A stretch of 64,000 nt of DNA. It comes from Eubacteriales bacterium (GTDB taxonomy: Bacteria; Bacillota; Clostridia; Oscillospirales; CAG-272). The translations under genes were made by a program, and so were the position numbers. The notes beneath the pieces are model-generated. The model was not told where the DNA came from. It was given only the letters and a program-made list of their open reading frames with translations, and did not search any database. Shown piece after piece: positions 6,308 through 64,000 of the stretch. The DNA lies in contig JAZOVZ010000106.1 in assembly GCA_045658965.1 (NCBI GenBank), positions 3,618-67,617 of the forward strand, in the 5' to 3' direction. Within the stretch, counting starts at the first letter, position 1; each line of letters starts with the position of its first letter.

Positions 6308-7255
6308 TTACGTACCTACCTTCGAAAGCATTCTCTTAACCAGGGAGTTTGCACCTACCATGATGCAGAACAGGATTACGGCGATTGCCGAGGAGTAACC
6401 CATTTCAAAACGCATACCACCGTAGTCGTTGAGGTGGTGCATGATGGTGTGTGCTGCGTAGTTTACGGACGGGAATCCGCACAGTGCGTCAACGACGCCA
6501 CCGAAGCCGAACGCACCGGTGATTGCCATGACTGCACCGAACATCAGCTGCGGCTTCATGTTAGGCAGCGTGATGTAGTAAAGCTCCTGCCAACGGTTCT
6601 TGATACCGTCAACCGCGCCTGCCTCAAACTGTGCACGGTCGATACCCTGCAAACCTGCGATGAATGCAAGGAACGAAGTACCCAGCGAGATCCAGAGTGC
6701 AACTACGATACAAAGGGGCATGACCCACTTTTCATTCTGGAAGAACGCGATTTCTTTTGTGATAATACCTAATTTGATCAGGGTTGCGTTTGCCCAACCG
6801 TAGGAGTCTGCCGAGAAAAGCGTACCCCAAATCAAGTAAACGTTACCACCGATGGAGGGAGCGTAGAAGACCAGAGTGACAAGCGCTCTGATTCTGGGAG
6901 GCAGCTCATTGATGAACCACGCTACCAGGAAGGACATCAGGTAGGACACAGGTCCTACGACGACTGCGAAGATCAACGTATTCTTGATTGCGATGAGGAA
7001 GATATCGTCATCGAAGAACAACGAAACGTAGTTGTCCAGGAATACGAAGTTGGGCCATTCAAGCAAGTTAAAGTCTGTAAAGCTGACGACGATAGACAGT
7101 ACGACAGGCATGACAGTGAACATTGCAAAGAGAATCATATAAGGTGCAACCATGAAGTATGCAACCTTATTGCGTACCACCTCTTTCAAGATCCACTGAG
7201 TCTTGGTAAGGTCTTTACGAGTACCAGCTTTTTTGGTTGCTGTGTTCTTAGACAT
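6308..7255 (-). CDS. Sugar ABC transporter permease (MalF/CUT1-like)
   Basis: 315 aa and TM-rich. EAA-type loop FEAGAVDGIKNRWQELYYITLPNMKP. Confidence 0.9.
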   Translation of the reverse strand: MSKNTATKKAGTRKDLTKTQWILKEVVRNKVAYFMVAPYMILFAMFTVMPVVLSIVVSFTDFNLLEWPNFVFLDNYVSLFFDDDIFLIAIKNTLIFAVVVGPVSYLMSFLVAWFINELPPRIRALVTLVFYAPSIGGNVYLIWGTLFSADSYGWANATLIKLGIITKEIAFFQNEKWVMPLCIVVALWISLGTSFLAFIAGLQGIDRAQFEAGAVDGIKNRWQELYYITLPNMKPQLMFGAVMAITGAFGFGGVVDALCGFPSVNYAAHTIMHHLNDYGGMRFEMGYSSAIAVILFCIMVGANSLVKRMLSKVGT

Positions 7256-11063: not shown

Positions 11064-11408
11064 AAAATTTCCTCCTACCAAGATTTTTGAAGACCTCTTG
11101 CAAGGCCTTCTGTGAGTGCCGATATGAGAATTCGGCTCACATTAGGGGTACGGTGCTTGCCAATAATACCATGCACTGCGGGCAGAATCCGCACTCGCGG
11201 GACTCCGCTTGCGCGGAAATTGCCTGCTGCTCTCAAGCGTCGCGTAACGTGGCGTGATCACGCGCGCGCATGGGAACCGACCAAGCATCCGTTCGGAGCG
11301 ACCAAATTTCACTCCCGACTTATCCGCAGAGACCATACGCGCCCGTCAGACGCGAATGCCCCTTGCAAACAGCCCGTGGCATCAGCATTATTGCTATGCA
11401 ATTGTCTT

Positions 11409-11432
11409 CGGCGGCATGTGCCGCCGTTTTAG
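11409..11432 (+). terminator. Rho-independent terminator-like hairpin (CGGCGGCATGTGCCGCCG + TTTT)
   Basis: A perfect 7-bp GC stem followed by a T-run on the plus strand. It sits at the end of a 330-nt GC-rich noncoding block. Confidence 0.45.
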
Positions 11433-12098
11433 ATTTTCACGCCGATAATTCTTTCATCAAATATATCAGCGGTCAAAAATAAGGCCATTGCAAGCAACCC
11501 GGAACGGTCCGCAAATGCCCTAATATTGATGCGCTTATTATATATCAAAGTGACTTTTCTGTCAAGCGACCTTCTCGGTCAAAACGGGGCTCTTTCGCGC
11601 GTTTTTCGGGCAAAATCGCCGTTCACCGTTTGTTCAAACATTCATATTTTCCGTTTTTTGCGCCATGCAATCTCTGTTGCATAACCTTGCAATTTGTCAA
11701 TTGTAATTTTTATTTACTCATTTTTGACTAATAATCGCCTTTTTCCGCGTCATTGTCGCCCATTTTTGTGCATTATTTGGCGTTTTGCGGGTCGTACGTC
11801 GCGTTAGTGTAAATTTTGTTTACCCTTTTGAAAAACTCGTTTATTCATTTTTTATGCATTTTAGGGTGTCATTCTTTGTAACTGTTGCACAATTTTGAGG
11901 GTCATTTTTTTACGTCTTGACATTTTGCACAAATTTAACGACATTTCCACGCAGCACCTCCCCGCACCCCCTGCTTTCTGCCTGCCGTTACCTTTTTTCT
12001 TGAAGCGCTTCCATTAATTCCCTTTTATTTTATCTTCGGGTGCACGTAGGTTTCCCTGCAATCTCCACACATACAAGCACCTATTTTTCCCTCCCCTC

Positions 12099-29908: not shown

Positions 29909-30469
29909 GTTATAGCCGAAGAGAGTCGAACTCACACGGTTTTGAGCGGCAAATATCTGCACCTGCGGCAGACAAAATGCTCGCAATATCTTATATTGCT
30001 TCGCATTTTCTCTTTGCATCTGCGAAATATTTGCTCGCGCAAAACTGCGCAGCACCCTCCGGCGTTGAATTTTTTGAGGGATTTTGTCAAAGCGAGTTGA
30101 AGCAAGATACGCATCTTGCAAGACGAGATTTGGCGAAAGACGCGAAAAATTCTCGCCGCAGGGCGCAGCCACACGAAAGCCGGGTCAAATAGGTTTTGAC
30201 ACGCAGATTTTTCCAATCCCTGCATCTCATCCTTTGGACATATTTCTCATATGCCCTGCAGGAAGAGCTTGGGGGATTTAAAAAATCTGTTGTGTCAAAA
30301 CTGCTTGCACCTTACGGTGAATGCATTTTTGATGGATTGCGTGAAAGCGAACCGAAGTAAGATAATAATCTTACGAGGTGAGCATTTGCGCAAGACGCGC
30401 AAATGCATCACCGTAAGGCTATTCGACTCGGCTTCCGTGTGGCTGAAAGTTCGGCTCTCTTCGGCTATA
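29909..30469. repeat. About 560-bp highly structured noncoding element with 30-35-nt terminal inverted repeats (MITE-like)
   Basis: Left end TTATAGCCGAAGAGAGTCGAACTCACACGG (29909-29938). Right end CCGTGTGGCTGAAAGTTCGGCTCTCTTCGGCTATA (30435-30469). The interior is full of hairpins, including CCTTACGGTGAATGCATTT ... AAATGCATCACCGTAAGG. Confidence 0.6.
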
Positions 30470-38200: not shown

Positions 38201-38408
38201 GCTCTCACCTCCTGTAATGTAAAGTCTGAAAGGCGCCCTCACCTATACAGTACCCTTTTCGGGCTGCTTGGTTGCAAAGCAAGAGAATATTTTTTCAAAA
38301 TCCTACCCAATTTCATTAAGGGGCAGGGTCATTAACTTTGCCCTTTTCTTGTACAATTAAGTCTATGAATTTGATTAGTTTTGCAGGAAGAAATCCGTTT
38401 TGGTGAGG

Positions 38409-38729
38409 GAGCGTCCGCGTGATGCACCTCATCCACCGCAACCGCGTCGATCATTTCGCGGATGCTCCGCGAAATATCTCTCCGCTGCGGTCCCCCTTCC
38501 CCAGCGGGGCAAGGCTTATTTCAGTTGCCCTTATCGATAAAAACGAGCAAGACGGAAGCAATCTTACCTTTACCGTAACGGTCAACCTAACAAAGCGGAT
38601 GCGCGCAGAAAGCCTTGCCCCGCTGGGGAAGATATTTGCAAGCAAATTAGACCGCAGCGGAAGCAGAAACGAGCAGCGCGAGTTTCAATGACGCGGTTGC
38701 GGTGGATGAGGTGCATCATATGGACGCTC
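38409..38729. mobile_element. 321-bp MITE-like element with 40-nt terminal inverted repeats
   Basis: The left TIR is GAGCGTCCGCGTGATGCACCTCATCCACCGCAACCGCGTC (38409-38448). It matches the reverse complement of 38690-38729 at 37/40. A second nested inverted repeat (CGCTGCGGT...CCCCAGCGGGGCAAGGCTT / AAGCCTTGCCCCGCTGGGG...ACCGCAGCG) lies inside. No coding capacity. Confidence 0.75.
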
Positions 38730-52444: not shown

Positions 52445-52630
52445 CAGATGCAAATGCAGCTATCGCTGCGTCCGCATCTGCAGTGAAATTCGCTCCCTTG
52501 GAGCGAGTGAAATATTTGCATGAATGCAAATGTGAAATATTCGCTGCGCGAATGTGAAATTCGCCTGCGGCGAGTGAGAATATAGTTGCCGTAGGTGCGA
52601 ATGACCATTGGTCGCCGGCACCTGCGGCAA
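52445..52630. repeat. Array of six hairpins, five of them spaced by a conserved (T)GTGAAAT(A) word
   Basis: The word precedes each hairpin: GTGAAAT-TCGCTCccttgGAGCGA; GTGAAATA-TTTGCATgaATGCAAA; TGTGAAATA-TTCGCtgcGCGAA; TGTGAAAT-TCGCCtgcGGCGA; GTGAGAATA..TTGCCGtAGGTGC...GGCACCTgCGGCAA. The array is preceded by GCAGATGC...GCATCTGC. Confidence 0.7.
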
Positions 52631-52681: not shown

Positions 52682-52710
52682 TTGAAAATTATGCGCCTAT
52701 GCTGTATAAT
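52682..52710 (+). promoter_or_regulatory. Sigma-70-type promoter of the GH38 gene
   Basis: TTGAAA, 17-nt spacer, TGtATAAT. The start codon is 32 nt downstream. Confidence 0.55.
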
Positions 52711-52741
52711 TAAGAAAAGACTATCCGAAGGGAGTACGTAC

Positions 52742-55162
52742 ATGAAGCAAGTACATCTGATCTGCAACGCGCACATTGACCCCATCTGGCAATGGGATTG
52801 GCAGGAGGGCGCGGGCGCGGTACTGTCCACCTTCCGTTCAGCCGTTAACTTAGCGCGCGAATTTGATTACGTGTTCTGCCACAATGAGGCAGCCATTTAT
52901 AAATACGTAGAGGAATATGATCCCGGACTGTTTGAGGAGATCAAGGAATTGGTCAAGGCAGGCAAATGGCACATTATGGGCGGCTGGTATCTGCAGCCCG
53001 ATTGCAACATGCCCTCGGGCGAGAGTTTGACGCGCCAGATCCTTGAGGGCAAGCGATACTTCCTTGACAAATTCGGCATCTTCCCCACCACCGCCATCAA
53101 CTTTGACTCGTTCGGGCATAGTATGGGCTTGGTGCAGATCATTGCCAAGTGCGGACAGGACAGCTATATCTGCTGCCGCCCCGCAGCGCACGTTGTCAAT
53201 CTGCCGTCCAGACAATTTGTCTGGAAAGGCTTTGACGGCTCGACCGTCAAGGTCATGCACGCGCACGACGGCGGCTACAACACCCCTATGGGCAGCTCGC
53301 TGGGTGCAATCATCAATAAAGCAAATGCGCAGCCCGAGGACACGGTATGCGTGCTTTGGGGCGTGGGCAATCACGGCGGCGGTCCTTCGCGCAAGGATCT
53401 TGCCGATATCCGGGCATACATGCAGGAAGGCGACAGCCTGTATCTCATTCACTCCACCCCCGAGCAGTTCTTTGCAAGCATCCATCCCACCGAAACGGTA
53501 GAGCGTTCCCTGCGCATCTCCATGCCGGGCTGCTATACCTCCATGGGCAAGATCAAGCGCAAGCACGTACAGCTGGAAAACGAGCTTTATACGGCAGAAA
53601 AGATGCTGTCTGCGGCTTGCATTTCGGGTGCGCTTTCCGAGTACCCCGAGGAAAAATTGCATGAGATCACCGAGGATCTGCTGGGCGCAGAGTTCCACGA
53701 CGTGCTCCCCGGCTCTTGCATCCAATCTGGCGAGGATAACGGACTCAAGCTGCTCGACCACGGCCTTTTGGAGGCGGAGCGTCTCAAGACCCGTGCCTTC
53801 TTTGCCATGTCACTGGATCAAAAGGTGGCAGCCGAGGGAGAATATCCCGTATTGGTATATAACCCCAACGCCACGCCCTTTGCAGGCAACGTGGAATTTG
53901 AGCTCATGCTTGCCGACCAGAACTGGACCGACAGCTATACGCATATTATCGTCAAGGATGAGGACGGCAACGAAATCCCCTCGCAATGCATCAAGGAAGA
54001 AAGCAATCTTGCCCTTGACTGGCGCAAGCGCGTGACCTTCTTTGCAGAGGTGCCGCCCATGAGCATGCGCCGCTACGGTGCATACGCACGCATTTTCCCC
54101 GAAAAGCCGGGTGCGAAATGTGCCGACACGGTATTTGACAACGGACATAAGCGCGTAGTCATTGACGGAAAGACAGGTCTGCTCTCCTCGTTTACCTTGG
54201 ACGGCAAGGAATACGTGCACGACGCATTTTCGCTGTGTGCCTTTGACGACAATCCCGACCCTTGGGGTATGCAGGATTTCCAGATCTCCCGCCTTGGCAC
54301 CAACGAGCAGCAATTTACCCTTTGCGAACACCCCGACGGTCCCTTTGAGGGGCTTTCCCCCATTTCGGTCATCGAGGACGGTGACGTTTACCTTGGCGTT
54401 GAGGCGCTGTTTGCCCACGAGCACACCCGTGCCCGCGTGCTTTATAAAATCTACAAGAACAACGACCTTGTGGACGTGGACGTAACCCTGTTCCTTGGCG
54501 ATATCAACCGCTTTATCAAGCTCAAGGTGCCCTTCTCCGGTGAAGGTAAGCTGATTGGCCAAGCCGTATTCGGCACGGAAGAGCTTTACATGGACGCACG
54601 CGAGAACGTGTCGCAACGCTTTATCGCGCTGGATGACGGCAAGACCTGCACCGCACTCCTCAATAACTGCACATACGGCAGCCATTTTGAAAACGGTGCA
54701 CTCTACCTCTCTCTTGCACGCGGCGTGACCTATTGCGCACACCCCATCATGGCAAGACCCATCATCCCCACCGACCGCTTTACCAAGAAGATCGACCAGG
54801 GCGAGAGCGCCTACTCCTTCCGCCTCGGCGTATTTGCGCGCGAGGAGCTGGAGAACGCAGCGCAGGCATTTAACCATAAGCCCTACGTGCTAAACGTGTT
54901 CCCCACGGGCAGCGCGCACCCCGCAACCAAGCCTTTTTCGATCGATCTTGGCAACGACGCCGTCAGCCTTGTCACGCTCAAGCGTAAGGACGACACCGAC
55001 GGCACCTATATTCTGCGCCTGTTCAATAACACCCCCGACGCACAAAGCGGCACCCTCTGCCTGTGCGGCGCATCCCTGCCCCTTACCTACACGCCTTACG
55101 AGGCAAAAACCGTGCTGTATAAGGACGGCGTATTAACAGAGGCAGAGACTTTGATGATTTAA
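52742..55162 (+). CDS. Glycoside hydrolase family 38 alpha-mannosidase
   Basis: Start at ATG 52742. MKQVHLICNAHIDPIWQWDWQEG is the GH38 N-terminal metal-site signature. About 806 aa. Confidence 0.85.
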   Translation: MKQVHLICNAHIDPIWQWDWQEGAGAVLSTFRSAVNLAREFDYVFCHNEAAIYKYVEEYDPGLFEEIKELVKAGKWHIMGGWYLQPDCNMPSGESLTRQILEGKRYFLDKFGIFPTTAINFDSFGHSMGLVQIIAKCGQDSYICCRPAAHVVNLPSRQFVWKGFDGSTVKVMHAHDGGYNTPMGSSLGAIINKANAQPEDTVCVLWGVGNHGGGPSRKDLADIRAYMQEGDSLYLIHSTPEQFFASIHPTETVERSLRISMPGCYTSMGKIKRKHVQLENELYTAEKMLSAACISGALSEYPEEKLHEITEDLLGAEFHDVLPGSCIQSGEDNGLKLLDHGLLEAERLKTRAFFAMSLDQKVAAEGEYPVLVYNPNATPFAGNVEFELMLADQNWTDSYTHIIVKDEDGNEIPSQCIKEESNLALDWRKRVTFFAEVPPMSMRRYGAYARIFPEKPGAKCADTVFDNGHKRVVIDGKTGLLSSFTLDGKEYVHDAFSLCAFDDNPDPWGMQDFQISRLGTNEQQFTLCEHPDGPFEGLSPISVIEDGDVYLGVEALFAHEHTRARVLYKIYKNNDLVDVDVTLFLGDINRFIKLKVPFSGEGKLIGQAVFGTEELYMDARENVSQRFIALDDGKTCTALLNNCTYGSHFENGALYLSLARGVTYCAHPIMARPIIPTDRFTKKIDQGESAYSFRLGVFAREELENAAQAFNHKPYVLNVFPTGSAHPATKPFSIDLGNDAVSLVTLKRKDDTDGTYILRLFNNTPDAQSGTLCLCGASLPLTYTPYEAKTVLYKDGVLTEAETLMI

Positions 55163-55187: not shown

Positions 55188-56447
55188 ATGTCATCGTACA
55201 GCGAGCTGATCAAGAATTTTGAAAAGATCCGCGCCTATATGCGTGATTTTTACGTATACGGCTTCAAGCGCCGCGACGATTATCAATCCAAAAGTGCACG
55301 CTCCTATGACGACGAGCGCCGTCGCATGGAAAGCTGGCTGGGCGAGCACATGAGCTTTGTTCGCACGCCCGAGGGCAAAAACGTGTTCATTTCCATCGAC
55401 AGCCGCACCATCAGACACAACCCGCTGTACAATGCGTGGAAAGCGAAAAGCTTTACCGATGGCGATATTACGTTGCATTTCATCATCTTTGATATTCTGT
55501 ACGAGCCATCCGTCAAGCGAACGATATCCGAATTGCTTGCAGAGATCGACGAGAAATATCTCTCCGGCTTTGAAAGCCCCCAGATGTACGATGAATCTAC
55601 GCTGCGCAAAAAGCTCAAGGAATACTGCGAGGCGGGCATCATCGAAACGGAAAAGCAGGGTCGCAAGGTATATTATCACAGAACCGAAAGCACCGAAGTT
55701 GCCGATCTTGACGACGTCCTGCACTACTTTTCCGAGGTAGCACCCTGCGGCGTGATCGGCTCGTTTATACTTGACAAAGAGGACTCTGACACCGAGACAT
55801 TCACGTTCAAGCACCATTACATCACAGGTGCCATCGACAGCGGCGTGCTCGCCTCACTCTTTACAGCCATGCGCGAAAAGCGTGCAGTCACGCTCTCTAA
55901 TCTGCGAAGAAACGCCGATATGCCGCGCCGCTTGCGTGTCGTGCCCCTGCGCATTTTCATCAGCGTGCAGACAGGCAGACAGCATCTGCTTGCCTACCTG
56001 CCCGCCTATAATATCTTCCATTCCTACCGTATCGACTATCTGTCCGGCATCAAGCTCGAAGACCCCACGCCCCGCTTTGACGAGCTGCGTGCCGAGCTTG
56101 ACCGCATGCAGACAAAGATGTGGGGCGTGATCACAAGCCGCAACAAATGGGGTAAGGAGCAGCTGGAGCACGTGGAATTCACCGTGAAAATCGGCAAGGA
56201 CGAACAGCATATCGTAAGACGCTTGGAGCGAGAAAAGCGCGTTGGCAAGGTGGAGCAAATCGACGAGCACACCTACCGCTTCTCTGCTGAAGTATACGAC
56301 TCGGGCGAGCTGTGCCCGTGGATCAGAACCTTTATCTGCCGCATTGCGCAAATGAACTTCTCCAACCGCACCGTGGAAAACCGCTTCAAGCGGGATTTGG
56401 AGGAGATGTACATGCTCTACGGCATCGAAAAGGAGGCGGACGAATGA
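55188..56447 (+). CDS. wHTH + WYL + WCX domain regulator (WYL protein 1)
   Basis: 419 aa. Winged-helix segment (LRKKLKEYCEAGIIETEKQGRKVYYHR). WYL core (RLRVVPLRIFISVQTGRQHLLAYLPAYNIFHSYRIDYLSGIKL). C-terminal WCX-like segment (HVEFTVKIGKDEQHIVRRLEREKRVGKVEQIDEHTYRF). Confidence 0.7.
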   Translation: MSSYSELIKNFEKIRAYMRDFYVYGFKRRDDYQSKSARSYDDERRRMESWLGEHMSFVRTPEGKNVFISIDSRTIRHNPLYNAWKAKSFTDGDITLHFIIFDILYEPSVKRTISELLAEIDEKYLSGFESPQMYDESTLRKKLKEYCEAGIIETEKQGRKVYYHRTESTEVADLDDVLHYFSEVAPCGVIGSFILDKEDSDTETFTFKHHYITGAIDSGVLASLFTAMREKRAVTLSNLRRNADMPRRLRVVPLRIFISVQTGRQHLLAYLPAYNIFHSYRIDYLSGIKLEDPTPRFDELRAELDRMQTKMWGVITSRNKWGKEQLEHVEFTVKIGKDEQHIVRRLEREKRVGKVEQIDEHTYRFSAEVYDSGELCPWIRTFICRIAQMNFSNRTVENRFKRDLEEMYMLYGIEKEADE

Positions 56448-57355
56448 TCTTTTCCGAGCTTTATTCAGCCTATTACCGCACGGTTGCCGCCATACTGTCG
56501 GCAATCTTAGACGGTGAGCAAAACGAAAAGGCACTGCAGGACATCGTCGTGGGGCATGCGTTCGGTGAGAGTGTGCTGACCATTCTGCCCGCGCTCAAAA
56601 CAGAGAAATGGCAGCTTGTGCACGCCGATATGACCACACCCATCCGACACAAGCCCACTCTTCCCCTGACCATGCTGCAAAAGCAGTGGCTCAAGGCAAT
56701 TTCTCTTGATCCTCGCGTGCAGCTGTTCGGTGTGGATTTTCCCGATCTTGGGAACGTAGAGCCGCTTTTCACCCCTGCGGATTATCACGTATATGATAAA
56801 TACGGCGACGGTGACCCTTACACCGATCCCGAGTACATCCGCCAATTCCGCGTCATTCTGAGCGCGATTCAAAACGGCTCGCAAATCAAATTCAACATGG
56901 TCAACCGCAAGGGCAACACCATGTACGTCAGATGCCGCCCCGTGCGTTTGGAATACTCCGAAAAGGACGACAAATTCCGTGTGATCACAGCAGGCTGGCG
57001 TGCGGTATCCACCGTCAATCTTGCAAAAATACAGAACTGTGCGCATTATCAAGGCACGCAACAAGTCAAGGGGCAGGAACGAGAGGAGCTGTATGATACC
57101 GTGACGGTCAAGATCCGAAACGAGCGCAACGCCCCCGAGCGATTTTTGCTCAACTTTGCGCACTTTGAAAAGCAAACCGAAAAGCTTGACAAAAAGCACT
57201 ATCAGGTAAGGATCAGATACCCCTTGAACGATCAGCCCGAAATGGTCATCCGTATGCTCTCGTTCGGTCCCATGATCGAGGTCACAGAGCCCGAAGCTTT
57301 TCGCGCACTCATGATCGAAAAGCTGAAAAAACAGTTGGATTGTAAATTAAAGTAA
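56444..57355 (+). CDS. WYL + WCX domain protein without obvious HTH (WYL protein 2)
   Basis: Start at ATG 56444 in an ATGA overlap with the upstream stop. WYL core (MYVRCRPVRLEYSEKDDKFRVITAGWRAVSTVNLAKI). WCX-like end (MVIRMLSFGPMIEVTEPEAFRALMIEKL). Confidence 0.7.
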   Translation: MIFSELYSAYYRTVAAILSAILDGEQNEKALQDIVVGHAFGESVLTILPALKTEKWQLVHADMTTPIRHKPTLPLTMLQKQWLKAISLDPRVQLFGVDFPDLGNVEPLFTPADYHVYDKYGDGDPYTDPEYIRQFRVILSAIQNGSQIKFNMVNRKGNTMYVRCRPVRLEYSEKDDKFRVITAGWRAVSTVNLAKIQNCAHYQGTQQVKGQEREELYDTVTVKIRNERNAPERFLLNFAHFEKQTEKLDKKHYQVRIRYPLNDQPEMVIRMLSFGPMIEVTEPEAFRALMIEKLKKQLDCKLK

Positions 57356-57356
57356 C

Positions 57357-57390
57357 AAAAAGCCCTCATCCGAGGGCTTTTTGTTGTTTT
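57357..57390 (+). terminator. Rho-independent terminator after the WYL pair
   Basis: AAAAAGCCCTCatccGAGGGCTTTTTGTTGTTTT. Confidence 0.8.
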
Positions 57391-57405
57391 CGCAGCTTTT
57401 TTTCC

Positions 57406-57434
57406 GTGAAAAACGGTGCGCGGAATGGTAAAAT
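57406..57434 (+). promoter_or_regulatory. Putative promoter of the rtcB operon
   Basis: GTGAAA, 17-nt spacer, TGgTAAAAT (extended -10). A small palindrome CCGTgaaaaACGG overlaps the -35 and is a possible operator. Confidence 0.4.
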
Positions 57435-57450
57435 ATGCTTGAAAGGAGGG

Positions 57451-58518
57451 ATGATGATGTGGCTCTTCCCTAAAAAGCAAAATAAGTTTATCCTTGGGCG
57501 CAAAAGAAAAGCCGCGCTTGCACAGCTGCAAAAGGCGTTCCCTGCCGAATGCGCCGAAGACGTGCGGATTGTGTTCTTCTCTCTCATCTCAACCGCAGAA
57601 GTCCCGCGAAATGAACTCACCTTTTTCTTTGATCACATCACCGATTGGCAACTGCCCTCGGGCGAGTGCATCACGCTTCCCTATCGCATTTACATACGCG
57701 ACGAGCTGCGCCTCGGATGCAAGTTGACCGAGCAGCAGCAGATCATCTGGCATTGCATCGGTTCCAGAAGCCACAACGGCTACGTGCGCCAGCGACACAT
57801 CCAAGCCCTGCTTGCCACCGACCTGCCCGAATGGGCACTTCCCTATATCATCAAGATCTGCGACGAATACGTCATAGAGATCTTAAAGATCGTATATGCA
57901 TCGCTTTCAGGGCGCAACTGCACCGCATATAAGCGCATCTGCGCACTCAACTTTGATTATATCAAGCTCGGGCACAGCCGCATGATCAGTTACTGGAACG
58001 AATATTACAGGTGGGATTGCTATCAATACAGCGAATACATCGGTAAAAAGCTGTACCGCGAATGCTTCGGCTTCAGCAAAACCGGGCAAAAGACCATCAT
58101 ATTCAAGGAGGAGGAAGTTTACACAATGACACTCAAAGAATTTGAACAAAAGTGGCTCTCCATCTTTGCCAAAGACATTCCCAAAAAGCAGTTGGAAGAA
58201 TACGTGAGCGGTCGTGGCGGTTACATCTGGCATATCTTTTCCTGGGATTTGATGCCTAAGGACAGGTATCTGACCGGTGATGCCGCTCGCCAGGCCTATG
58301 ATACTCTTCCCTGTTATGCAAGAGAATCTGCTTTATTTATCGAACCCTTTGGCAGCAAACGCCCCGAAACATTTTCCTTAGCCTTACACCAATCCGATGC
58401 ACGTGCGCTGGACGAACGCGTGGAAATATTCGTCGTAGCTAAAGACTTTTCATGGACGTATATCAAAACACATGAAAATAACTGGTGCGGACCTTATTTC
58501 TACTGTAAAAAGCAGTAA
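57451..58518 (+). CDS. Two-part hypothetical protein (about 355 aa); C-terminal half resembles small DUF4275-like proteins
   Basis: Triple ATG at 57451-57459 directly after AGGAGGG. An internal in-frame ATG at 58126 has its own AGGAGG. The C-terminal part has GGYIWHIFSWD...WTYIKTHENNWCGPYFY. No enzymatic motif recognised. Confidence 0.55.
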   Translation: MMMWLFPKKQNKFILGRKRKAALAQLQKAFPAECAEDVRIVFFSLISTAEVPRNELTFFFDHITDWQLPSGECITLPYRIYIRDELRLGCKLTEQQQIIWHCIGSRSHNGYVRQRHIQALLATDLPEWALPYIIKICDEYVIEILKIVYASLSGRNCTAYKRICALNFDYIKLGHSRMISYWNEYYRWDCYQYSEYIGKKLYRECFGFSKTGQKTIIFKEEEVYTMTLKEFEQKWLSIFAKDIPKKQLEEYVSGRGGYIWHIFSWDLMPKDRYLTGDAARQAYDTLPCYARESALFIEPFGSKRPETFSLALHQSDARALDERVEIFVVAKDFSWTYIKTHENNWCGPYFYCKKQ

Positions 58519-58550
58519 TCACTTCCCCTTGGTCACGAAAGGAGCACATC

Positions 58551-59018
58551 ATGATTTTTCATCTTACCAACTTCATACTTGACGTTGACGTCGAGCGCAC
58601 GCGCGCCTTTTATGAGCGCACCGACGTGCCCACCACGAGCCAAGGATGCTCCTGCGAGGGCTGCCAAAACTTTGATAAAGCAATTTTAACCGTGCCTGCC
58701 ACCGTGACCGAATTCTTGCAATCGCTCGGCATCGATCCCCAAAAGCCGATAGAAGCCTATAGCGTTACGGGAGAACGTGAACCGGACGGCACGATCTTGT
58801 ATAACGGCTGGTATCACGTATGCGGAAAGGTGGTACAGTGGCCGAAATTTGAACAAACCGAAAATCGCCTTTCCTACAGCCGGGAGGATGGCTACCGCCC
58901 CGATCCCACGTTCCGCTTTGATATCATTGCCGTTCCCACGGTGGATCTGGCGCACAAGCAGATGCCCACACCCATCATCCAGTTGGATTTTGATACGTAT
59001 CTTCCCTATTTGCTATAA
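58551..59018 (+). CDS. Hypothetical protein (155 aa, CxCxxC motif)
   Basis: Good SD (AAAGGAG). Contains SQGCSCEGCQNF. No recognisable family. It sits between the unknown gene and rtcB with 21-32-nt gaps. Confidence 0.55.
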   Translation: MIFHLTNFILDVDVERTRAFYERTDVPTTSQGCSCEGCQNFDKAILTVPATVTEFLQSLGIDPQKPIEAYSVTGEREPDGTILYNGWYHVCGKVVQWPKFEQTENRLSYSREDGYRPDPTFRFDIIAVPTVDLAHKQMPTPIIQLDFDTYLPYLL

Positions 59019-59039
59019 CCATGAAAGGAGTTCCATACA

Positions 59040-60248
59040 ATGTTAGAGATTATCGGAGCATATAACACCGCCAAGTGCTTTGCCACCACCATTGACGAGG
59101 GTGCGCGCGAGCAGATCAAGCAGGTTTGCGACGCCGAAGCGTTTGCATCCGCCAAGATCCGCATTATGCCTGACGTGCACGCCGGCAAGGGCTGCACCAT
59201 CGGCACGACCATGACCGTCACCGACAAGATCGTACCCGCCATGGTGGGTGTGGACATCGGTTGTGGCATGTATACGGTATATCTTGGCAATATTGATATC
59301 GATTTTGAAAGAATGGATGAGGCAGCGCACGCGATTCCCTGCGGCATGAAGGTATGGGAGGGCAGACAGGAGCGATTTGACCTGACCGCCCTGCGCTGCT
59401 ACAGAAGCTTAAAGGACTCCAAAAGACTGGAGCGCAGCATTGGAACTTTGGGCGGTGGCAATCACTTTATCGAGATTGACGTGGACGACGCGGGCGGCAA
59501 ATACTTAGTCATCCACTCGGGCAGCCGCAACCTTGGCACGCAGGTTGCACATCACTATCAGCACCTCGCTTATGAGCTTAACTTGGGCAAGGAGGAATAT
59601 TTCAAGCAGCGCGACGAGATCATTCGCACCTATAAGGAGGCGGGCAGACGCACCGAGATCCAAAGCACACTCAAGGCACTTGAAAAGGCGTTCCATGCGA
59701 GGATGCCTACCCTGCCCGAAGATCTTTGCTACCTCTACGGCAGCTTTATGGACGATTATCTGCACGACGTGGATATCTGCCAGCAGTTTGCTGAGCGCAA
59801 CCGCGCCAAGATGGCAGAGATCATTCTGGACCGCATGGGCTGGACGGCAATCGAATCCTTTCAAACCATTCACAACTACGTGGATGTGCACGAAATGATC
59901 CTGCGCAAGGGCGCGGTGTCGGCAAAAGCGGGCGAAAAACTGCTCATTCCCATCAATATGCGTGACGGCAGCTTGATCTGCATTGGCAAGGGCAACGAGG
60001 ATTGGAACTTCTCCGCTCCTCACGGCGCAGGTCGTTTGCTCTCACGCACCACCGCCTTTGAGCAGCTGACTATGGCAGAATATGAGCGCGAGATGGCAGG
60101 CATCTACTCCACCTGCGTCGTCCCCGACACCTTGGACGAGTCGCCCATGGCGTATAAGAGCATGGACGAGATCGTGGAGAACATCGAGCCCACCGCCGAG
60201 ATCGTCTGCAGAATCAAGCCCCTCTATAACTTCAAGGCGGCGGAGTGA
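59040..60248 (+). CDS. rtcB: RtcB-family RNA 3'-phosphate/2',3'-cyclic-phosphate ligase (short about 400-aa form)
   Basis: 402 aa. Contains IRIMPDVHAGKGCTIGTTM, GVDIGCGM, GGGNHFIEIDVD, HSGSRNLG and SAPHGAGR (His nucleophile region). Confidence 0.9.
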   Translation: MLEIIGAYNTAKCFATTIDEGAREQIKQVCDAEAFASAKIRIMPDVHAGKGCTIGTTMTVTDKIVPAMVGVDIGCGMYTVYLGNIDIDFERMDEAAHAIPCGMKVWEGRQERFDLTALRCYRSLKDSKRLERSIGTLGGGNHFIEIDVDDAGGKYLVIHSGSRNLGTQVAHHYQHLAYELNLGKEEYFKQRDEIIRTYKEAGRRTEIQSTLKALEKAFHARMPTLPEDLCYLYGSFMDDYLHDVDICQQFAERNRAKMAEIILDRMGWTAIESFQTIHNYVDVHEMILRKGAVSAKAGEKLLIPINMRDGSLICIGKGNEDWNFSAPHGAGRLLSRTTAFEQLTMAEYEREMAGIYSTCVVPDTLDESPMAYKSMDEIVENIEPTAEIVCRIKPLYNFKAAE

Positions 60249-60263
60249 CCGAGGGGTGCGCTC

Positions 60264-60470
60264 ATGAAAATTCCAATCAACAAAGAACATCTCGAATATT
60301 TGCAAAACAACGGCATTGACGTTTTGCAGGTCTTACAAGACAATGATCTTGATTTAGTGTTAGAAATCATCGACGACGCAATCGTTGATGACATTGTAAA
60401 TAATCACGATAAAATAACAACGCACGGTATTTATTTGCAAAGAATTTATGATCAGATAGCACAATTATAA
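60264..60470 (+). CDS. Small acidic hypothetical protein (68 aa)
   Basis: AT-rich ORF 15 nt after rtcB and followed by a terminator. D/I/V-rich (DNDLDLVLEIIDDAIVDDIVNN). Coding status is uncertain. Confidence 0.4.
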   Translation: MKIPINKEHLEYLQNNGIDVLQVLQDNDLDLVLEIIDDAIVDDIVNNHDKITTHGIYLQRIYDQIAQL

Positions 60471-60486
60471 TCCTTTGTAAAGCAAG

Positions 60487-60516
60487 CAGGAGATCCCAAA
60501 TGGGATCTCCTGTTTC
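60487..60516 (+). terminator. Rho-independent terminator of the rtcB operon
   Basis: CAGGAGATCCCaaaTGGGATCTCCTG + TTT. Confidence 0.8.
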
Positions 60517-60597
60517 GAGGGGTACTCACCTGCGGCGAGAATACCCACGCCCTGCGCCTGGAGAATGCCCCACTTCGCGGGTCGCTCTCCGATCTTC

Positions 60598-60768
60598 GGG
60601 CAGAGGGATTCTGAACCCATGTTTGCGCTAACAGCTTTTATAACTGCTTACTCGTCCTGCGCAAACCAACATGTCGCGGCTTGCGCCGCTCATGCGAGGT
60701 TCTCATCGGGGCTCTCCCACCACGATACAAAAGGAAACCCACCGCGCTGCGGTGGTTTTCCTTTTGTA
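60598..60768. repeat. Structured repeat unit A (divergent copy) ending in terminator hairpin 60729-60765
   Basis: It shares with B and C: CAGAGGGATTCTGAACCC, the stem GTTTGCGC/GCGCAAAC, and the hairpin CATGTCGCGGCTTGCGCCGCTCATG. The 30-nt loop and the 3' segment differ. It lacks the GCCTCCGCCA end. Confidence 0.75.
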
Positions 60769-60944
60769 TGGCGGAGGCAGAGGGATTCTGAACCCTTGTT
60801 TGCGCAATGGGCGTTGAGAACCGTTTACCTACCCTGCGCAAACCAACATGTCGCGGCTTGCGCCGCTCATGCGGGGTTCGAATCGATACACTATCACGAT
60901 AAAAACAAAAGGAGATCCCTAAAAAGGATCTCCTTTTGTTTTTA
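60769..60944. repeat. Structured repeat unit B (176 bp) ending in terminator hairpin 60907-60937
   Basis: The minus strand ends ...AAGGGTTCAGAATCCCTCTGCCTCCGCCA next to the preceding terminator. The plus strand contains GCGGGGTTCGAATC. Confidence 0.8.
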
Positions 60945-61121
60945 TGGCGGAGGCAGAGGGATTCTGAACCCTTGTTTGCGCTAATGGGCGTTGAGAACCG
61001 TTTGCCTACCCTGCGCAAACCAACATGTCGCGGATTGCGCCGCTCATGCGGGGTTCGAATCGATACACTATCACGATAAAAACAAAAGGAGATCCCTAAA
61101 AAGGATCTCCTTTTGTTTTTA
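60945..61121. repeat. Structured repeat unit C (177 bp) ending in terminator hairpin 61084-61114
   Basis: Differs from unit B at only 3 positions (one 1-nt indel and two substitutions). Confidence 0.8.
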
Positions 61122-61195
61122 TGGCGGAGGCAGAGGGATTCGAACCCCCGTGGGGAAGCCCCAAACGGTTTTCAAGGCACATTAACCACTCGGAA
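61122..61195 (-). pseudogene. tRNA-Ser(UGA)-like 3' portion (anticodon loop to CCA) lacking a 5' acceptor strand
   Basis: The minus strand reads CCTTGAAAACCGTTTGGGGCTTCCCCACGGGGGTTCGAATCCCTCTGCCTCCGCCA. This gives a UGA anticodon-loop half, a GGGG/CCCC variable arm, a canonical GGGGG-TTCGAAT-CCCTC T-arm, a 3' acceptor strand and CCA. No GGAGGCA lies upstream and the anticodon stem is unpaired. Confidence 0.6.
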
Positions 61196-61423
61196 ATTAG
61201 AGAATTTTAGAGGAAGATATCAGACGATAAAAGACGCTGAAACCCCAGTGTTTACAAGGGTTTTCGGCTCTTTTTTGTTCGAACCTCGAAAAATCCCTTA
61301 CGCCATAAGGGATACCGATTTCTAAAAATATTTCTAAAAATTTTTTAGAAATTCTTTTAGAAATGCACCCCCGTTTGTGTGGATGCTTTCGGGGCGGTTG
61401 TGCTCCGAAAGCCAAACACAATA

Positions 61424-62173
61424 TCAAAGTAAAGACAGAAAAACCTCGTTCAGCTCGTTCCAGTCGTGAGAATCCTCAGCCGATAATCCTGCGATGATAC
61501 CTTCGATCTCCTCAATGTTGCGATCCAAATAATCGTTGACACGGTCGAATCGCTTGCCCTCGCCGATCTCGGGCATATTCATTTTCATATCAAGCAGCTT
61601 CTCAACGTCGGGCTTCAGATCATCGTCAAGATACTTATCCATAAGCGTGCGGAACAGCATCGGTGGTGGTGTGCCTTCTGCAAGGATCCATTTGCACGCA
61701 AGCAGCGGACGAAGCACATAAAAATACTTTTTCAGCCTTACCGTTTCACCCTTCAGATATTCGCGATAGTTGCTCTTGGCTGTGCTGAGATAGTGGTAAA
61801 GCCCCGACTTCGCTACAAAGTAGCGGTTAATAATAGCGGATATCTTCTGCCAATCCTCAGTCGTCTTATATACGATGGGAGAGGAATTCCACTCGAACAG
61901 TGTCGGATTTGATTTGTGAAGCAAAGTCAGTGCTTTCTGAACATCCCATCCGTTGATATCCAGCGTATCATCCAACTGCCATTCGATAACGTCGCGAGTC
62001 TTGTCGAGGCGCAAATAGAACTCCTTGGGGCGAACGTATATGAAACGCACGTCGTAGTCGCTGTCAGGCGAGGCAAAGCCCCACGCCCGGCTTCCCGATT
62101 CGATGCAGTGCAGAATTTTTATGTTTTCTCGTTTCTCGATCTCATCAAGCTTTTCAAGAATCGTTTCTCTCAT
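61424..62173 (-). CDS. RlaP/COG3541-type Pol-beta-superfamily nucleotidyltransferase (RNA-repair-associated family)
   Basis: Start at ATG 62173 after GGAAGGAGGG. ILHCIESGSRAWGFASPDSDYDVRFIYVRP carries the GS..D.D NTase signature and matches my memory of PF10127. About 250 aa. Confidence 0.7.
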   Translation of the reverse strand: MRETILEKLDEIEKRENIKILHCIESGSRAWGFASPDSDYDVRFIYVRPKEFYLRLDKTRDVIEWQLDDTLDINGWDVQKALTLLHKSNPTLFEWNSSPIVYKTTEDWQKISAIINRYFVAKSGLYHYLSTAKSNYREYLKGETVRLKKYFYVLRPLLACKWILAEGTPPPMLFRTLMDKYLDDDLKPDVEKLLDMKMNMPEIGEGKRFDRVNDYLDRNIEEIEGIIAGLSAEDSHDWNELNEVFLSLL

Positions 62174-62484
62174 AACTTTCCCTCCTTCCGAGATTTGCTC
62201 CATTATACCATAAAAATGTAAATTCTTCAAGTCACCTCACGGTTAAATGTTTGCACCGCTGTAATCAAAGATAACCGCCGTGCCATTATACCCCCATTAT
62301 ACCCCTTTGCAAAATTCACTTTATTCGCTGAATATTCGCTCTGTTCACTGAATAAAGCGAATATCGATTATTCCGAAAGTTTACAATTACTATTCCGCAA
62401 AACGTTGACATTATGCCGAAAATGTGGTATACTTATACTGATATATTATAAAATTCGAAATCTCAACGTAACGAGGTATGAATA

Positions 62485-63363
62485 ATGGCTATGACTACAA
62501 AACAAGCCGCCGAGAAATGGGGCATCTCCGACAGACGTGTCCGTACTCTCTGCGTTAACGGGCAAATTGACGGCGCATGGCGCGAGGGCAAACTCTGGTT
62601 TGTTCCCGATAACGCTCCCAAGCCTGCCGATGGACGCATTCGCGGAAAGGAAACCCTTCTCGCCCAGATCGAAAGAAAGAAAATCGAACTCGACGGTCGC
62701 AGACCGCTCACCGAGGGTGAAGTGGCGCGTCTGAACGAGGACTTCATGATTGAATATACCTACAATTCCAACGCCATCGAGGGCAACACGCTGACCTTGC
62801 GCGAAACAGATATGGTTCTCAAAGGCCTGACCATCGATCAGAAGCCTTTGAAGGATCATATGGAAGCAGTTGGCCACAAGGACGCATTCTACTACATCTG
62901 CGACCTGGTCAAGGAACGTACTCCCCTGTCGGAGACCGTGATCAAACAGATTCATGCGCTCGTGCTTGCCGACAAACCGCTTGACCGCGGCGTGTACCGT
63001 AAAGTGCCGGTTCGCATCATGGGCGCAAAGCAAGACCCTGTGCAACCGTACTTGATCGAAGCAAAGATGTTTGATCTGATGCAGCAGTACGCCACAGACG
63101 AGCGGTGCATCGTGGAAAAGCTTGCCGATCTGCATATCGCGTTTGAGTCCATCCATCCTTTCATCGATGGCAACGGCAGAACCGGCCGCCTGATCGTCAA
63201 CCTTGAACTGATGAAGGCCGGCTATCCCCCCATCGATATCAAATTCACCGACAGAATGCGTTATTACGACGCCTTCGACCACCGCGAGGACATGGTAAAG
63301 CTGTTCGCGGAGTATCTAAATAAGCGATTGGATCAGTATTTAGAAGTATTAGAGAACAACTAA
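62485..63363 (+). CDS. Fic-family protein with N-terminal HTH and internal inhibitory-helix motif
   Basis: Fic motif HPFIDGNGRTGRL. SNAIEGN matches (S/T)xxxE(G/N). N-terminal TTKQAAEKWGISDRRVRTLC is HTH-like. The 278-aa antisense ORF is a shadow. Confidence 0.85.
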   Translation: MAMTTKQAAEKWGISDRRVRTLCVNGQIDGAWREGKLWFVPDNAPKPADGRIRGKETLLAQIERKKIELDGRRPLTEGEVARLNEDFMIEYTYNSNAIEGNTLTLRETDMVLKGLTIDQKPLKDHMEAVGHKDAFYYICDLVKERTPLSETVIKQIHALVLADKPLDRGVYRKVPVRIMGAKQDPVQPYLIEAKMFDLMQQYATDERCIVEKLADLHIAFESIHPFIDGNGRTGRLIVNLELMKAGYPPIDIKFTDRMRYYDAFDHREDMVKLFAEYLNKRLDQYLEVLENN

Positions 63364-63481
63364 TCCTTCATCTTCTCCCCACGAACAGCAATTCGACGGT
63401 CTGAAAGAGATTATAGGGAGAAGAATGGGAATTAAACTAAAAGAGACTCAACAAACAATAAAAAATCAAATGGAGGCTATT

Positions 63482-64000
63482 ATGAGCACTTTGGAAATAA
63501 AGAAAAACAACCAAGGAAAAATATATTCTTTTATTAGAGACGATTATTTTGTATGTACTCCTGAGGAGGAAGTTCGTCAAAACTTAGTGTGCAAACTTGT
63601 CAACGATTTTGGCTATCCTCTTAGCTTAATGGCTGAAGAATACAGACCTGATATGGAAACTCGAGGTGTCCGCTCAACAAGAGCCGATATTGTGATTTTT
63701 GAAACAGAAGAAAAGAAAGTGAATAATCACAATGCCTTTATCGTTGTTGAGTGTAAAGCAGAAAATGTTAGAATTCGTTTGGAGGATTTCTATCAGGGGG
63801 CGGAATATGCCGCAAAAGTGCGCGCTCAATTTTTGGTGTTGCACAATTCAAAAGAAACTAATTTTTATGCAGTTGATATAGATAAAATTCCAAACAAAAA
63901 AGATGCATTTACACAGATCATTGCAATTCCCCACTATAATGATATTGGTGATGCAAAGAAAATAGAAACCATAAAAAAGCAAACAAAAACATTTACCCGT
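63482..64000 (+). CDS. HsdR_N (type I restriction enzyme R-protein N-terminal)-like domain protein, truncated by window edge
   Basis: The frame is open from ATG 63482 (SD GGAGG 6 nt upstream) to the window end, so it is not in the ORF track. Contains EEVRQNLVCKLVNDFGYP...RADIVIF...AFIVVECKAENV (PD-(D/E)xK-like core). About 35% GC. Confidence 0.6.
   Translation, partial: MSTLEIKKNNQGKIYSFIRDDYFVCTPEEEVRQNLVCKLVNDFGYPLSLMAEEYRPDMETRGVRSTRADIVIFETEEKKVNNHNAFIVVECKAENVRIRLEDFYQGAEYAAKVRAQFLVLHNSKETNFYAVDIDKIPNKKDAFTQIIAIPHYNDIGDAKKIETIKKQTKTFTR

Follow-up and report, generated by a model that had tools for sequence, protein, structure and literature searches.

The 64,000-nt stretch of contig JAZOVZ010000106.1 from an Eubacteriales bacterium (hereafter the window, taken at its full length) carries, between positions 55188 and 60512, a core module in which genes for two WYL-domain proteins, WYL1 and WYL2, precede an operon encoding the RNA ligase RtcB. 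It is proposed, with a probability of roughly 0.68, that this is a Clostridia RtcB operon switched by a WYL1/WYL2 heteromer at a 20-nt site, and that the tandem repeats and the nucleotidyltransferase gene rlaP lying beyond it are outside the module. The window proteins were searched against Pfam, NCBIfam and PADLOC, RNAs with ARAGORN and Rfam, and repeats with Tandem Repeats Finder (TRF). All genes and signals of the original prediction for this DNA were recovered where it had placed them, by the open reading frame (ORF) list, domain matches and a pattern scan. The features of the module are the following.

55188..56447, + strand: WYL1, 419 aa, with an N-terminal extension (residues 1-97), an ArsR-like winged helix-turn-helix (HTH; approximately 98-180), a WYL domain (220-289) and a C-terminal extension
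56444..57355, + strand: WYL2, 303 aa, with WYL and WCX domains, HTH not detected
57354..57385: 14-bp terminator hairpin ending the WYL1-WYL2 transcript (pattern scan)
57389..57408, + strand: operator-like motif TTCGCAGCTTTTTTTCCGTG, at about -52 to -33 of the operon promoter
57406..57434, + strand: RtcB-operon promoter; the -35 (GTGAAA) is weak, the spacer measures 17 nt and the -10, TGGTAAAAT at 57426-57434, is extended
57451..58518, + strand: X355, an XN domain of about 205 aa fused to DUF4275 (residues 230-350; Pfam 4.9e-16)
58551..59018, + strand: Y155, a small protein with conserved C33/C35/C38 and H89 and without a family match
59040..60248, + strand: RtcB, 3'-phosphate/5'-OH RNA ligase (PF01139, 9e-58)
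60264..60470, + strand: Z68, a 68-aa acidic ORF
60487..60512: 11-bp hairpin with a weak T-run at the end of the RtcB operon (pattern scan)

Alignment of the window RtcB to that of Pyrococcus horikoshii (4dwr) reveals that the catalytic motifs MPDVHAGKG, DIGCG, GGGNHF, HSGSR and HGAGR are intact, the metal-binding and GMP-histidine motifs being present. The predicted run of four tightly spaced genes, X355, Y155, RtcB and Z68, is borne out by the ORF list, with gaps of 32, 21 and 15 nt. Hairpin terminators, which had also been predicted, were found both after the WYL pair and after Z68, though the T-run of the latter is weak.

The locus is a member of a large Clostridia family of RtcB RNA-repair operons. 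Two sets of relatives were compared: 80 fetched RtcB-anchored loci (RtcB 59-99% identical; all from Clostridia metagenome-assembled genomes (MAGs) or isolates), which were scanned with the window proteins and of which 57 had sufficient upstream DNA, and 80 WYL2-anchored loci, the best of at least 578 species genomes encoding a WYL2 relative, of which 54 had sufficient downstream DNA. WYL1 and WYL2 lie upstream of RtcB on the same strand in 48 of the 57 informative RtcB loci, and in 39 of the 40 in which RtcB is at least 66% identical. Seen from WYL2, WYL1 is encoded about 1250 nt upstream of the WYL2 start in 77/80 loci and RtcB downstream on the same strand in 45/54; the remaining nine carry Band_7, DUF2828 or AAA-ATPase cargo without RtcB. 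The observed neighbourhoods support a consistent and specific linkage of the WYL pair to this RtcB clade; X355 and Y155, which the original prediction had joined to the pair, are not consistently linked. A further candidate, co-variation of the pair only with the GH38 alpha-mannosidase gene upstream of WYL1 (52682-55162), had been named as an outcome that would overturn the prediction; it was rejected, since GH38 adjoins the pair only in L003 and L181, the same-species loci closest to the window (about 93% identity over the operon for L003). Among gut Clostridia, cultured carriers of the WYL pair include Faecalimonas (F. umbilicata DSM 103426, L071), Hominiventricola (H. aquisgranensis CLA-AA-H78B, L069) and Blautia.

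WYL1 matches Pfam WYL (7.5e-5), an NCBIfam ArsR/SmtB HTH at residues 110-166 and, in PADLOC, WYL (3.7e-11) plus a Csa3-type HTH; WYL2 matches Pfam WCX (2.2e-5), which is present in 16 of 18 orthologues, and PADLOC WYL (1.6e-10). The WYL2 start overlaps the WYL1 stop through ATGA, a translational-coupling overlap proposed earlier and confirmed in the ORF list, and an ATGA-type overlap is conserved across loci. Direct searches of PDB sequences with WYL1 and WYL2 returned nothing or marginal matches only. The WYL1 profile gave marginal matches to BrxR-like 7qfz, PafC 7p5x (E = 0.35) and SmtB, and the WYL2 profile found no HTH protein in the PDB; domain searches detected no HTH in WYL2 or in 17 orthologues, and only the WYL domains align when the two profiles are compared by hhalign. 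These results are consistent with one HTH per pair, an arrangement that fits the data and is not proven. The PafB/PafC-like asymmetry claimed in the original prediction therefore stands in that an HTH is detected in WYL1 only, but not as an established single-HTH status. Judged by sequence, the pair appears to share with PafBC-type regulators the adjacency and overlap of its genes and a WYL domain in each protein, with WCX detected in WYL2; an HTH is detected in WYL1 only. WYL1 orthologues have in common a strongly conserved N-terminal extension, the winged HTH, the WYL domain and the C-terminal domain. The extension (residues 1-97; window 55188-55478) contains many invariant residues, such as R19, F21, Y22, Y24, G25, F26 and K27, and neither a family match nor a PDB match was found for it.

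By aligning the DNA downstream of WYL2 across loci, a 20-nt motif, TTCGCARCTTTTTTTCCRTG, was found, whose sole match in the window is that at 57389-57408, even when 3 mismatches are allowed (0.04 expected by chance). Fifty-four of the fetched loci carry it without a mismatch, generally once each, which with the window makes 57 copies; all are on the + strand in the stretch from WYL2 to the cargo, about 20 nt upstream of a TGnTAAAAT-type -10, and the loci conserve both this -10 and its distance from the motif. The motif is also exact where the upstream DNA is unrelated (L012, L023, L028, L070 and L086-88), and a second exact copy stands before the internal cargo in L052 and upstream of WYL1 in L071. 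A conserved cis element sits at the sigma-70-type promoter of the operon. The promoter-like site at 57406-57434 had been pointed out before and was recovered by the pattern scan, its -10 being TG-extended; the small CCGT/ACGG palindrome said to cover its -35 is present but not conserved, the conserved element being the adjoining upstream motif at 57389-57408. In most related loci the 5' arm of the WYL2 terminator is formed by the last WYL2 codons (...NCGLK*), and the window has a different terminator before the motif. We read the motif as a predicted protein-binding promoter element that would double as a terminator arm in many genomes, because it is exact without related upstream DNA, behind the different terminator of the window, and in its second copies.

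The slot between the operator and RtcB is modular in the relatives. Most often it holds a Band_7/SPFH gene behind about 0.4 kb of conserved non-coding DNA; next in frequency is a gene for a DUF2828+DUF7788 protein, preceded by non-coding DNA in which one to four tRNA-like genes lie. Band_7 occurs in 38 and DUF2828 in 17 of the 80 RtcB loci (a putative scaffold in 55/80), and RlaP follows RtcB in 9/80. The tRNA-like genes between WYL2 and the scaffold gene are called by ARAGORN and Rfam in relatives, and the Band_7-type leader holds a perfect T-arm. None of this was found in the window: no Band_7, TROVE or DUF2828 among ORFs 55188-62230 (Pfam), no in-operon tRNA-like non-coding RNA (ARAGORN 0 tRNAs, Rfam none), and just 16 nt between the -10 and the start codon of X355. 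The window copy is a trimmed variant without non-coding RNA or scaffold, in which XN, fused to DUF4275, is followed by a Y155-family gene. CARF and AAA+ sigma-54 activator domains were not found in the neighbouring ORFs (Pfam, NCBIfam).

Several further observations concern the relatives. Non-coding RNAs past the operator lie at L005 850-1340, L016 6960-8490, L018 7269-7954 and L069 9860-10000; the DUF2828-type leader comprises a Y-RNA-like stem and one to four tRNA-like modules, and in Lachnospiraceae a short RNA with an anticodon-arm-like hairpin follows the operator. A PDB sequence search with DUF2828 gave nothing or marginal matches only. Two operator copies bracket an extra AAA-ATPase gene (Pfam AAA 4.8e-14) in L052 (6694 and 7947), L198 and L200, and this doubling suggests modular promoter-plus-cargo units. 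Just downstream of RtcB, L010 has a group II intron D1-D4 match in Rfam (RF02001, 34.7 bits; 7011-7235, - strand).

The two proteins described as unknown in the original prediction indeed match no characterised family in domain, PDB-sequence or fold searches, the C-terminus of X355 being DUF4275. X355 has 164 homologues, nearly all of them stand-alone proteins of about 205 aa without Pfam domains. In L086 and L087 the WYL genes (WYL, WYL2) are separated by about 0.9 kb of non-coding DNA from XN (205 aa), which is followed by Band_7, DUF4275 (142 aa) and RtcB; in L088 the DUF4275 position before RtcB is held by a 163-aa protein 53% identical to Y155, and in L003 XN lacks the DUF4275 part. Because L086 has XN and DUF4275 as separate genes, its DUF4275 being 45% identical to the X355 C-terminus, X355 is an XN::DUF4275 fusion, for which the simplest origin is that a Band_7 gene between the two was lost. 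In the AlphaFold2 (AF2) model the XN domain is a helical repeat with a small beta unit (predicted local distance difference test score, pLDDT, above 90) and the DUF4275 part is poor (pLDDT below 50); no neighbour below E = 0.3 was found for the XN/X355 model among PDB structures. Distant XN homologues are found in arrays of small same-strand ORFs near integrases, with DUF2691. A stand-alone XN gene also overlaps, in ATGA fashion, a MiaB-like UPF0004/radical-SAM gene that is followed by a YfbR-like HD gene (L089 3810-5779; L090; L091), which gives XN a second context with a tRNA-modification flavour.

For Y155, 58 homologues were found, none with a Pfam domain; the distant ones are scattered singletons in unrelated contexts. 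Its AF2 model has a pLDDT of 89.5 and matched nothing below E = 0.3 among PDB and viral structures, and PDB sequence searches with X355 and Y155 returned nothing or marginal matches only. The slot directly before RtcB is variable, being occupied by DUF4275, the Y155 family or a family of 145-152 aa. X355 and Y155 are real, recurrent accessory genes, a swappable cargo and not core, because XN is present in only 10/80 and Y155 in 5/80 RtcB loci. Z68 has no family match in Pfam, NCBIfam or PADLOC, is absent from L003 (where window 60277-60448 is deleted) and is present in 1/80 RtcB loci; it is strain-specific and of doubtful significance.

Beyond the operon terminator lie three features that are not part of the module.

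60599..61147: tandem 177-nt repeats (TRF, 3.1 copies, 87% matching)
61125..61176, - strand: displaced 3' half of tRNA-Ser(TGA), by homology to the intact tRNA of L003 at 11561-11648
61424..62173 (or 62230), - strand: RlaP nucleotidyltransferase (PF10127, 3e-92, full-length match)

In each repeat unit a three-stem element (about 110 nt) precedes a bidirectional terminator hairpin and a copied tRNA-Ser 3' end. The constant part of about 110 nt folds as a three-way junction (z about -3.3 for two units) made of a T-arm-like closing stem with a 1-2-nt bulge, a hairpin with a variable interior and a GC-rich hairpin. Covariation for this fold is thin, with 2 compensatory pairs in 10 sequences, and the junction structure is plausible, not proven. 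ARAGORN finds no complete tRNA in the window, and in Rfam the repeats have no tRNA or Y_RNA match at the gathering threshold or at E <= 10, where only an 18-nt T-arm fragment and an antisense plastid trnS-like match appear; an assignment of the repeats to tRNA, Y RNA or an Rfam family was accordingly rejected.

The distribution of the repeat unit follows tRNA-Ser genes. L003 has a single unit (11392-11568) adjoining an intact tRNA-Ser(TGA); of the 80 RtcB loci, 78 lack the unit, L002 showing a 44-nt match to the terminator-hairpin part at a short contig end. The core 19-mer places the element in just three genome contigs, namely the L003 locus, L097 from the same MAG, in which two units (2323-2660) follow a tRNA-Ser(CGA) with a tRNA-like end fitting that isoacceptor and with no RtcB nearby, and a tRNA-Ser(TGA) locus in a related MAG. 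A metagenome scan yielded a few more copies, among them a tandem array that lacks both the terminator and the tRNA acceptor part; further positions of the 110-nt element are L099 935-1200, L256 720-1094, L259 1267-1401 and L260 1788-2034. Close strains have anywhere from 1 to 3 copies. Tandem arrays are what unequal crossing-over would be expected to yield, acting between the direct repeats of about 70 bp that the terminator and the tRNA 3' end form. The repeat element belongs to the tRNA-Ser loci of one lineage and not to the RtcB module; a role as an RtcB-linked cofactor was rejected on its distribution at tRNA-Ser genes, including loci without RtcB. Of the tRNA-like array of the original prediction there remain the repeats with their tRNA-Ser 3' ends, which are tied to tRNA-Ser and not to RtcB. 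The element itself may act as a structured RNA or as a site of recombination, or it may be the scar that a recombination left.

The window and L003 are homologous up to 61176, inside the tRNA-Ser, of which the window retains the 3' half only. The RlaP side recurs in L100 (window 61122-62581) and L101 (window 61122-62294), which then run into a different tRNA-Ser 3' half. Because the L003 homology stops at 61176 and L100 and L101 share the RlaP side to this segment, the crossover is placed within the 19-nt CTTGAAAACCGTTTGGGGC (61158-61176, - strand), a segment spanning the tRNA from anticodon loop to variable arm. The RlaP-side DNA shows two marks of a tRNA-targeting integrative element, a displaced partial tRNA copy where it joins and a junction that recurs in other hosts (L100, L101). 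The RlaP side is lower in GC (0.39-0.48 versus about 0.53) and also carries a Fic protein (PADLOC candidate system PDC-S04) and an HSDR_N_2 ORF extending from about 63392 past the window end; position 64000 is 2.8 kb into this element. HSDR_N_2 is the N-terminal part of a type I restriction R subunit, and 61177-64000 resembles the edge of a defence island.

RlaP has its own signals, with promoter-like sites at 62202-62313 and a terminator hairpin at 61293-61313, and the 20-nt operator motif was not found near it; a PDB sequence search with RlaP gave nothing or marginal matches only. In a set of 80 RlaP relatives, 13 lie within WYL-...-RtcB-RlaP operons. No RtcB, WYL gene or operator was found in the flanks of the 15 closest relatives (80-97% identity), several of which sit beside tRNA genes. 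The closest stand-alone RlaP genes are directly downstream of tRNA pairs (Thr/Tyr or Leu/Met; L103 3520-3743, L105 7529-7698, L106 6988-7174), and only the coding sequence is conserved between these loci, like a single-gene cassette at tRNA loci. The adjacency of RlaP to RtcB is a secondary, strain-level event at a junction inside tRNA-Ser, because the L003 homology breaks in the tRNA, the closest relatives are stand-alone, and the gene has its own signals and no operator. An opposite-strand RlaP gene, as originally predicted, is thus present, but it is not part of the RtcB operon, from which it is separated by the repeats and the tRNA-Ser breakpoint. RlaP adds 1-2 nt to damaged RNA 3' ends before ligation (PMC12776372), so a biochemical partnership with RtcB is plausible.

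The gene content, the synteny, the conservation of the motif and the breakpoint are observed. We propose the following mechanism, in which heteromer formation, DNA binding, the ligand and the direction of regulation are what we infer. WYL1 and WYL2 would be co-translated from an upstream, separately terminated transcript and form a heteromer, which would bind 57389-57408, centred near -43 of the weak -35/extended -10 promoter; a single-HTH heteromer would fit this non-palindromic site. The WYL domains would bind a product of RNA damage, most likely RNA fragments with 2',3'-cyclic-phosphate or 3'-phosphate ends, and switch the promoter on. The promoter would then drive X355, Y155 and RtcB, and RtcB would reseal breaks with a 3'-phosphate or 2',3'-cyclic phosphate and a 5'-OH that ribotoxins make in tRNA and rRNA. 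The low-GC element with RlaP, Fic and HsdR-N would have recombined into the anticodon region of tRNA-Ser(TGA). Activation is favoured because the -35 is weak, the site is centred near -43 and asymmetric, and the regulators are transcribed separately, in parallel with PafBC. A cleaved-RNA ligand is favoured by analogy with RtcR, and the Aravind-group proposal on CARF and WYL factors, as later papers report it, points the same way. At somewhat less than even odds, WYL1/WYL2 may be an RNA-damage sensor of an uncharacterised kind, a single-HTH heteromer on an asymmetric operator that replaces RtcR in hundreds of Clostridia species.

Several points weigh against this proposal. WYL2 could hide a degenerate HTH below sequence detection, and a promoter for the WYL genes was not found, WYL1 starting 25 nt after GH38 in the window. 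The WYL domains characterised so far, to our knowledge, bind single-stranded DNA (PafBC, DriD) or lack a known ligand. The position of the motif fits repression by occlusion equally well. The 3' arm and tail of the WYL2 terminator consist, in most loci, of the motif's first 8 nt and the T-run, and part of the motif conservation could reflect termination and not protein binding. Carried to its end, this last point would make the motif a mere WYL terminator, with the WYL pair regulating elsewhere and hitch-hiking with RtcB. That account is barely credible: TTCGCAGC and the T-run do pair with the last WYL2 codons in most loci, but terminators are not conserved base for base across families, and the motif runs 5 nt beyond the T-run (CCRTG), is kept without the 5' arm both in the window and about 0.5 kb past the WYL2 stop in L086-L088, and is duplicated before the internal cargo of L052, while the linkage of pair and cargo holds over at least 578 species.

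The direction of regulation may also be the reverse of the one we propose. A BrxR/CapW-type repressor on a motif abutting the -35, keeping the operon off until a ligand releases it, would agree with the behaviour of most characterised single-gene WYL regulators of defence systems, which are repressors (PMC11888443, PMC9503650), with the overlap of the motif with the first 3 nt of the -35 hexamer, and with an extended -10 that could give good basal activity without an activator. We take it as the main rival and consider it rather unlikely, given a site that is not palindromic, lies upstream of the core promoter and not over it, and stands away from the promoter of the regulators themselves; the two-gene, single-HTH layout and the weak -35 are closer to PafBC-type activation. 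The cargo invites another account, improbable on balance, in which X355 and Y155 are immunity- or antitoxin-type proteins against ribotoxins and the operon is a 'neutralise and repair' cassette whose slot is swapped according to local toxins. The variability of the slot upstream of RtcB, the small-ORF arrays with DUF2691 near integrases that hold distant XN homologues and the scattered singletons of Y155 speak for it. No toxin gene is adjacent, though, and X355 and Y155 resemble no known immunity family in sequence or fold; the overlap of XN with a MiaB-like tRNA-modification operon suggests an RNA-related role instead. The view closest to the original prediction, that the WYL pair, X355, Y155, RtcB, Z68, the repeats and RlaP are one module with the repeats as Y-RNA-like or b7a-tRNA-like cofactors, is very improbable and already largely refuted by the neighbourhood data. 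Relatives' operons do hold tRNA-like non-coding RNAs and RlaP, the window copy is without an in-operon RNA, and the repeats fold into a stable three-way junction. The same repeats nevertheless occur at tRNA-Ser genes without RtcB (L097, L099), are missing from 78/80 RtcB loci, match no tRNA or Rfam family and number between 1 and 3 in closely related strains; there is no synteny with L003 on the RlaP side, which in L100 joins a different tRNA-Ser remnant, the operator was not found near RlaP, and the closest RlaP relatives are stand-alone.

Systems with RtcB, Band-7/b7a-tRNA or Ro(Rsr)/Y-RNA scaffolds and RlaP were described by Burroughs & Aravind 2016, as summarised in bioRxiv 10.1101/312249 and PMC12776372, and the cargo of the present family, as far as these summaries go, matches them: the RtcB core is shared, and orthologous loci have Band_7 or DUF2828, preceding tRNA-like genes and RlaP after RtcB. 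The window differs in having no scaffold and no in-operon tRNA-like RNA, in carrying XN::DUF4275 and Y155 instead, and in having RlaP outside the operon. In the RtcR-rtcBA system of E. coli and Salmonella, RtcR is a sigma-54 activator whose CARF sensor responds to tRNA fragments (PMC7790460). The window resembles it in having a dedicated nucleic-acid-sensor regulator beside an RtcB operon, and inducible RNA-repair logic is expected; it differs in lacking a CARF/AAA+ sigma-54 activator and RtcA, and in having a two-protein WYL pair and a sigma-70-type extended -10 promoter. Mycobacterial PafBC, a WYL-WCX heterodimer activating the response to DNA damage, is likewise encoded by two adjacent, overlapping WYL-WCX genes, is expressed apart from its targets and has an asymmetric target motif upstream of a -10 with a poor -35. 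Similarity to it is marginal (the PafC profile match), an HTH is detectable here in one subunit, the motif sequence and spacing differ, and the target here is a single RNA-repair operon and not a DNA-repair regulon. With the BrxR/CapW repressors WYL1 shares the HTH-WYL layout, a place beside a conflict or repair system and the weak profile match to 7qfz; unlike the present gene pair with its non-palindromic site at a downstream operon, they are single-gene homodimers on palindromes at their own promoter.

What is already known thus includes the RtcB repair operon with modular cargo and RlaP and, in general terms in the sources available, a role of WYL proteins in RNA repair: according to one proposal, cyclic-phosphate RNA is sensed by transcription factors of the CARF and WYL types, some of which regulate RNA repair (PMC9503650, citing Burroughs & Aravind 2016). 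Our literature search found no paper on the WYL1/WYL2 pair with RtcB or on its operator, Burroughs & Aravind 2016 being represented by later citations only. The earlier claim of an undescribed architecture is weakened by that general proposal. The parts that look exotic, the tRNA-like array and the convergent RlaP, are incidental, and the two unknown proteins are not core; in annotation, the repeat array and RlaP should not be assigned to the RtcB operon. The locus bears on how RtcB is switched on and RNA damage is sensed outside the Proteobacteria. It offers a concrete regulator-operator-operon triplet in abundant gut Clostridia, and a defined operator, an apparent single-HTH pair and occurrence in at least 578 species make it a well-posed experimental target. 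If the WYL pair does bind cleaved RNA, the range of WYL ligands would extend beyond single-stranded DNA, in parallel with CARF sensing in RtcR, and WYL domains would sense damaged RNA ends directly, in the control of repair and not of defence.

Two minor observations were made elsewhere in the window. The only Rfam match at gathering thresholds is a Gut-1 RNA motif (RF01706, 60 bits, E = 2e-9) at 52505-52585 on the + strand, directly upstream of the GH38 gene. Short stretches at 29911-29989 and 38319-38412 are 85-94% identical to unrelated positions of L097.

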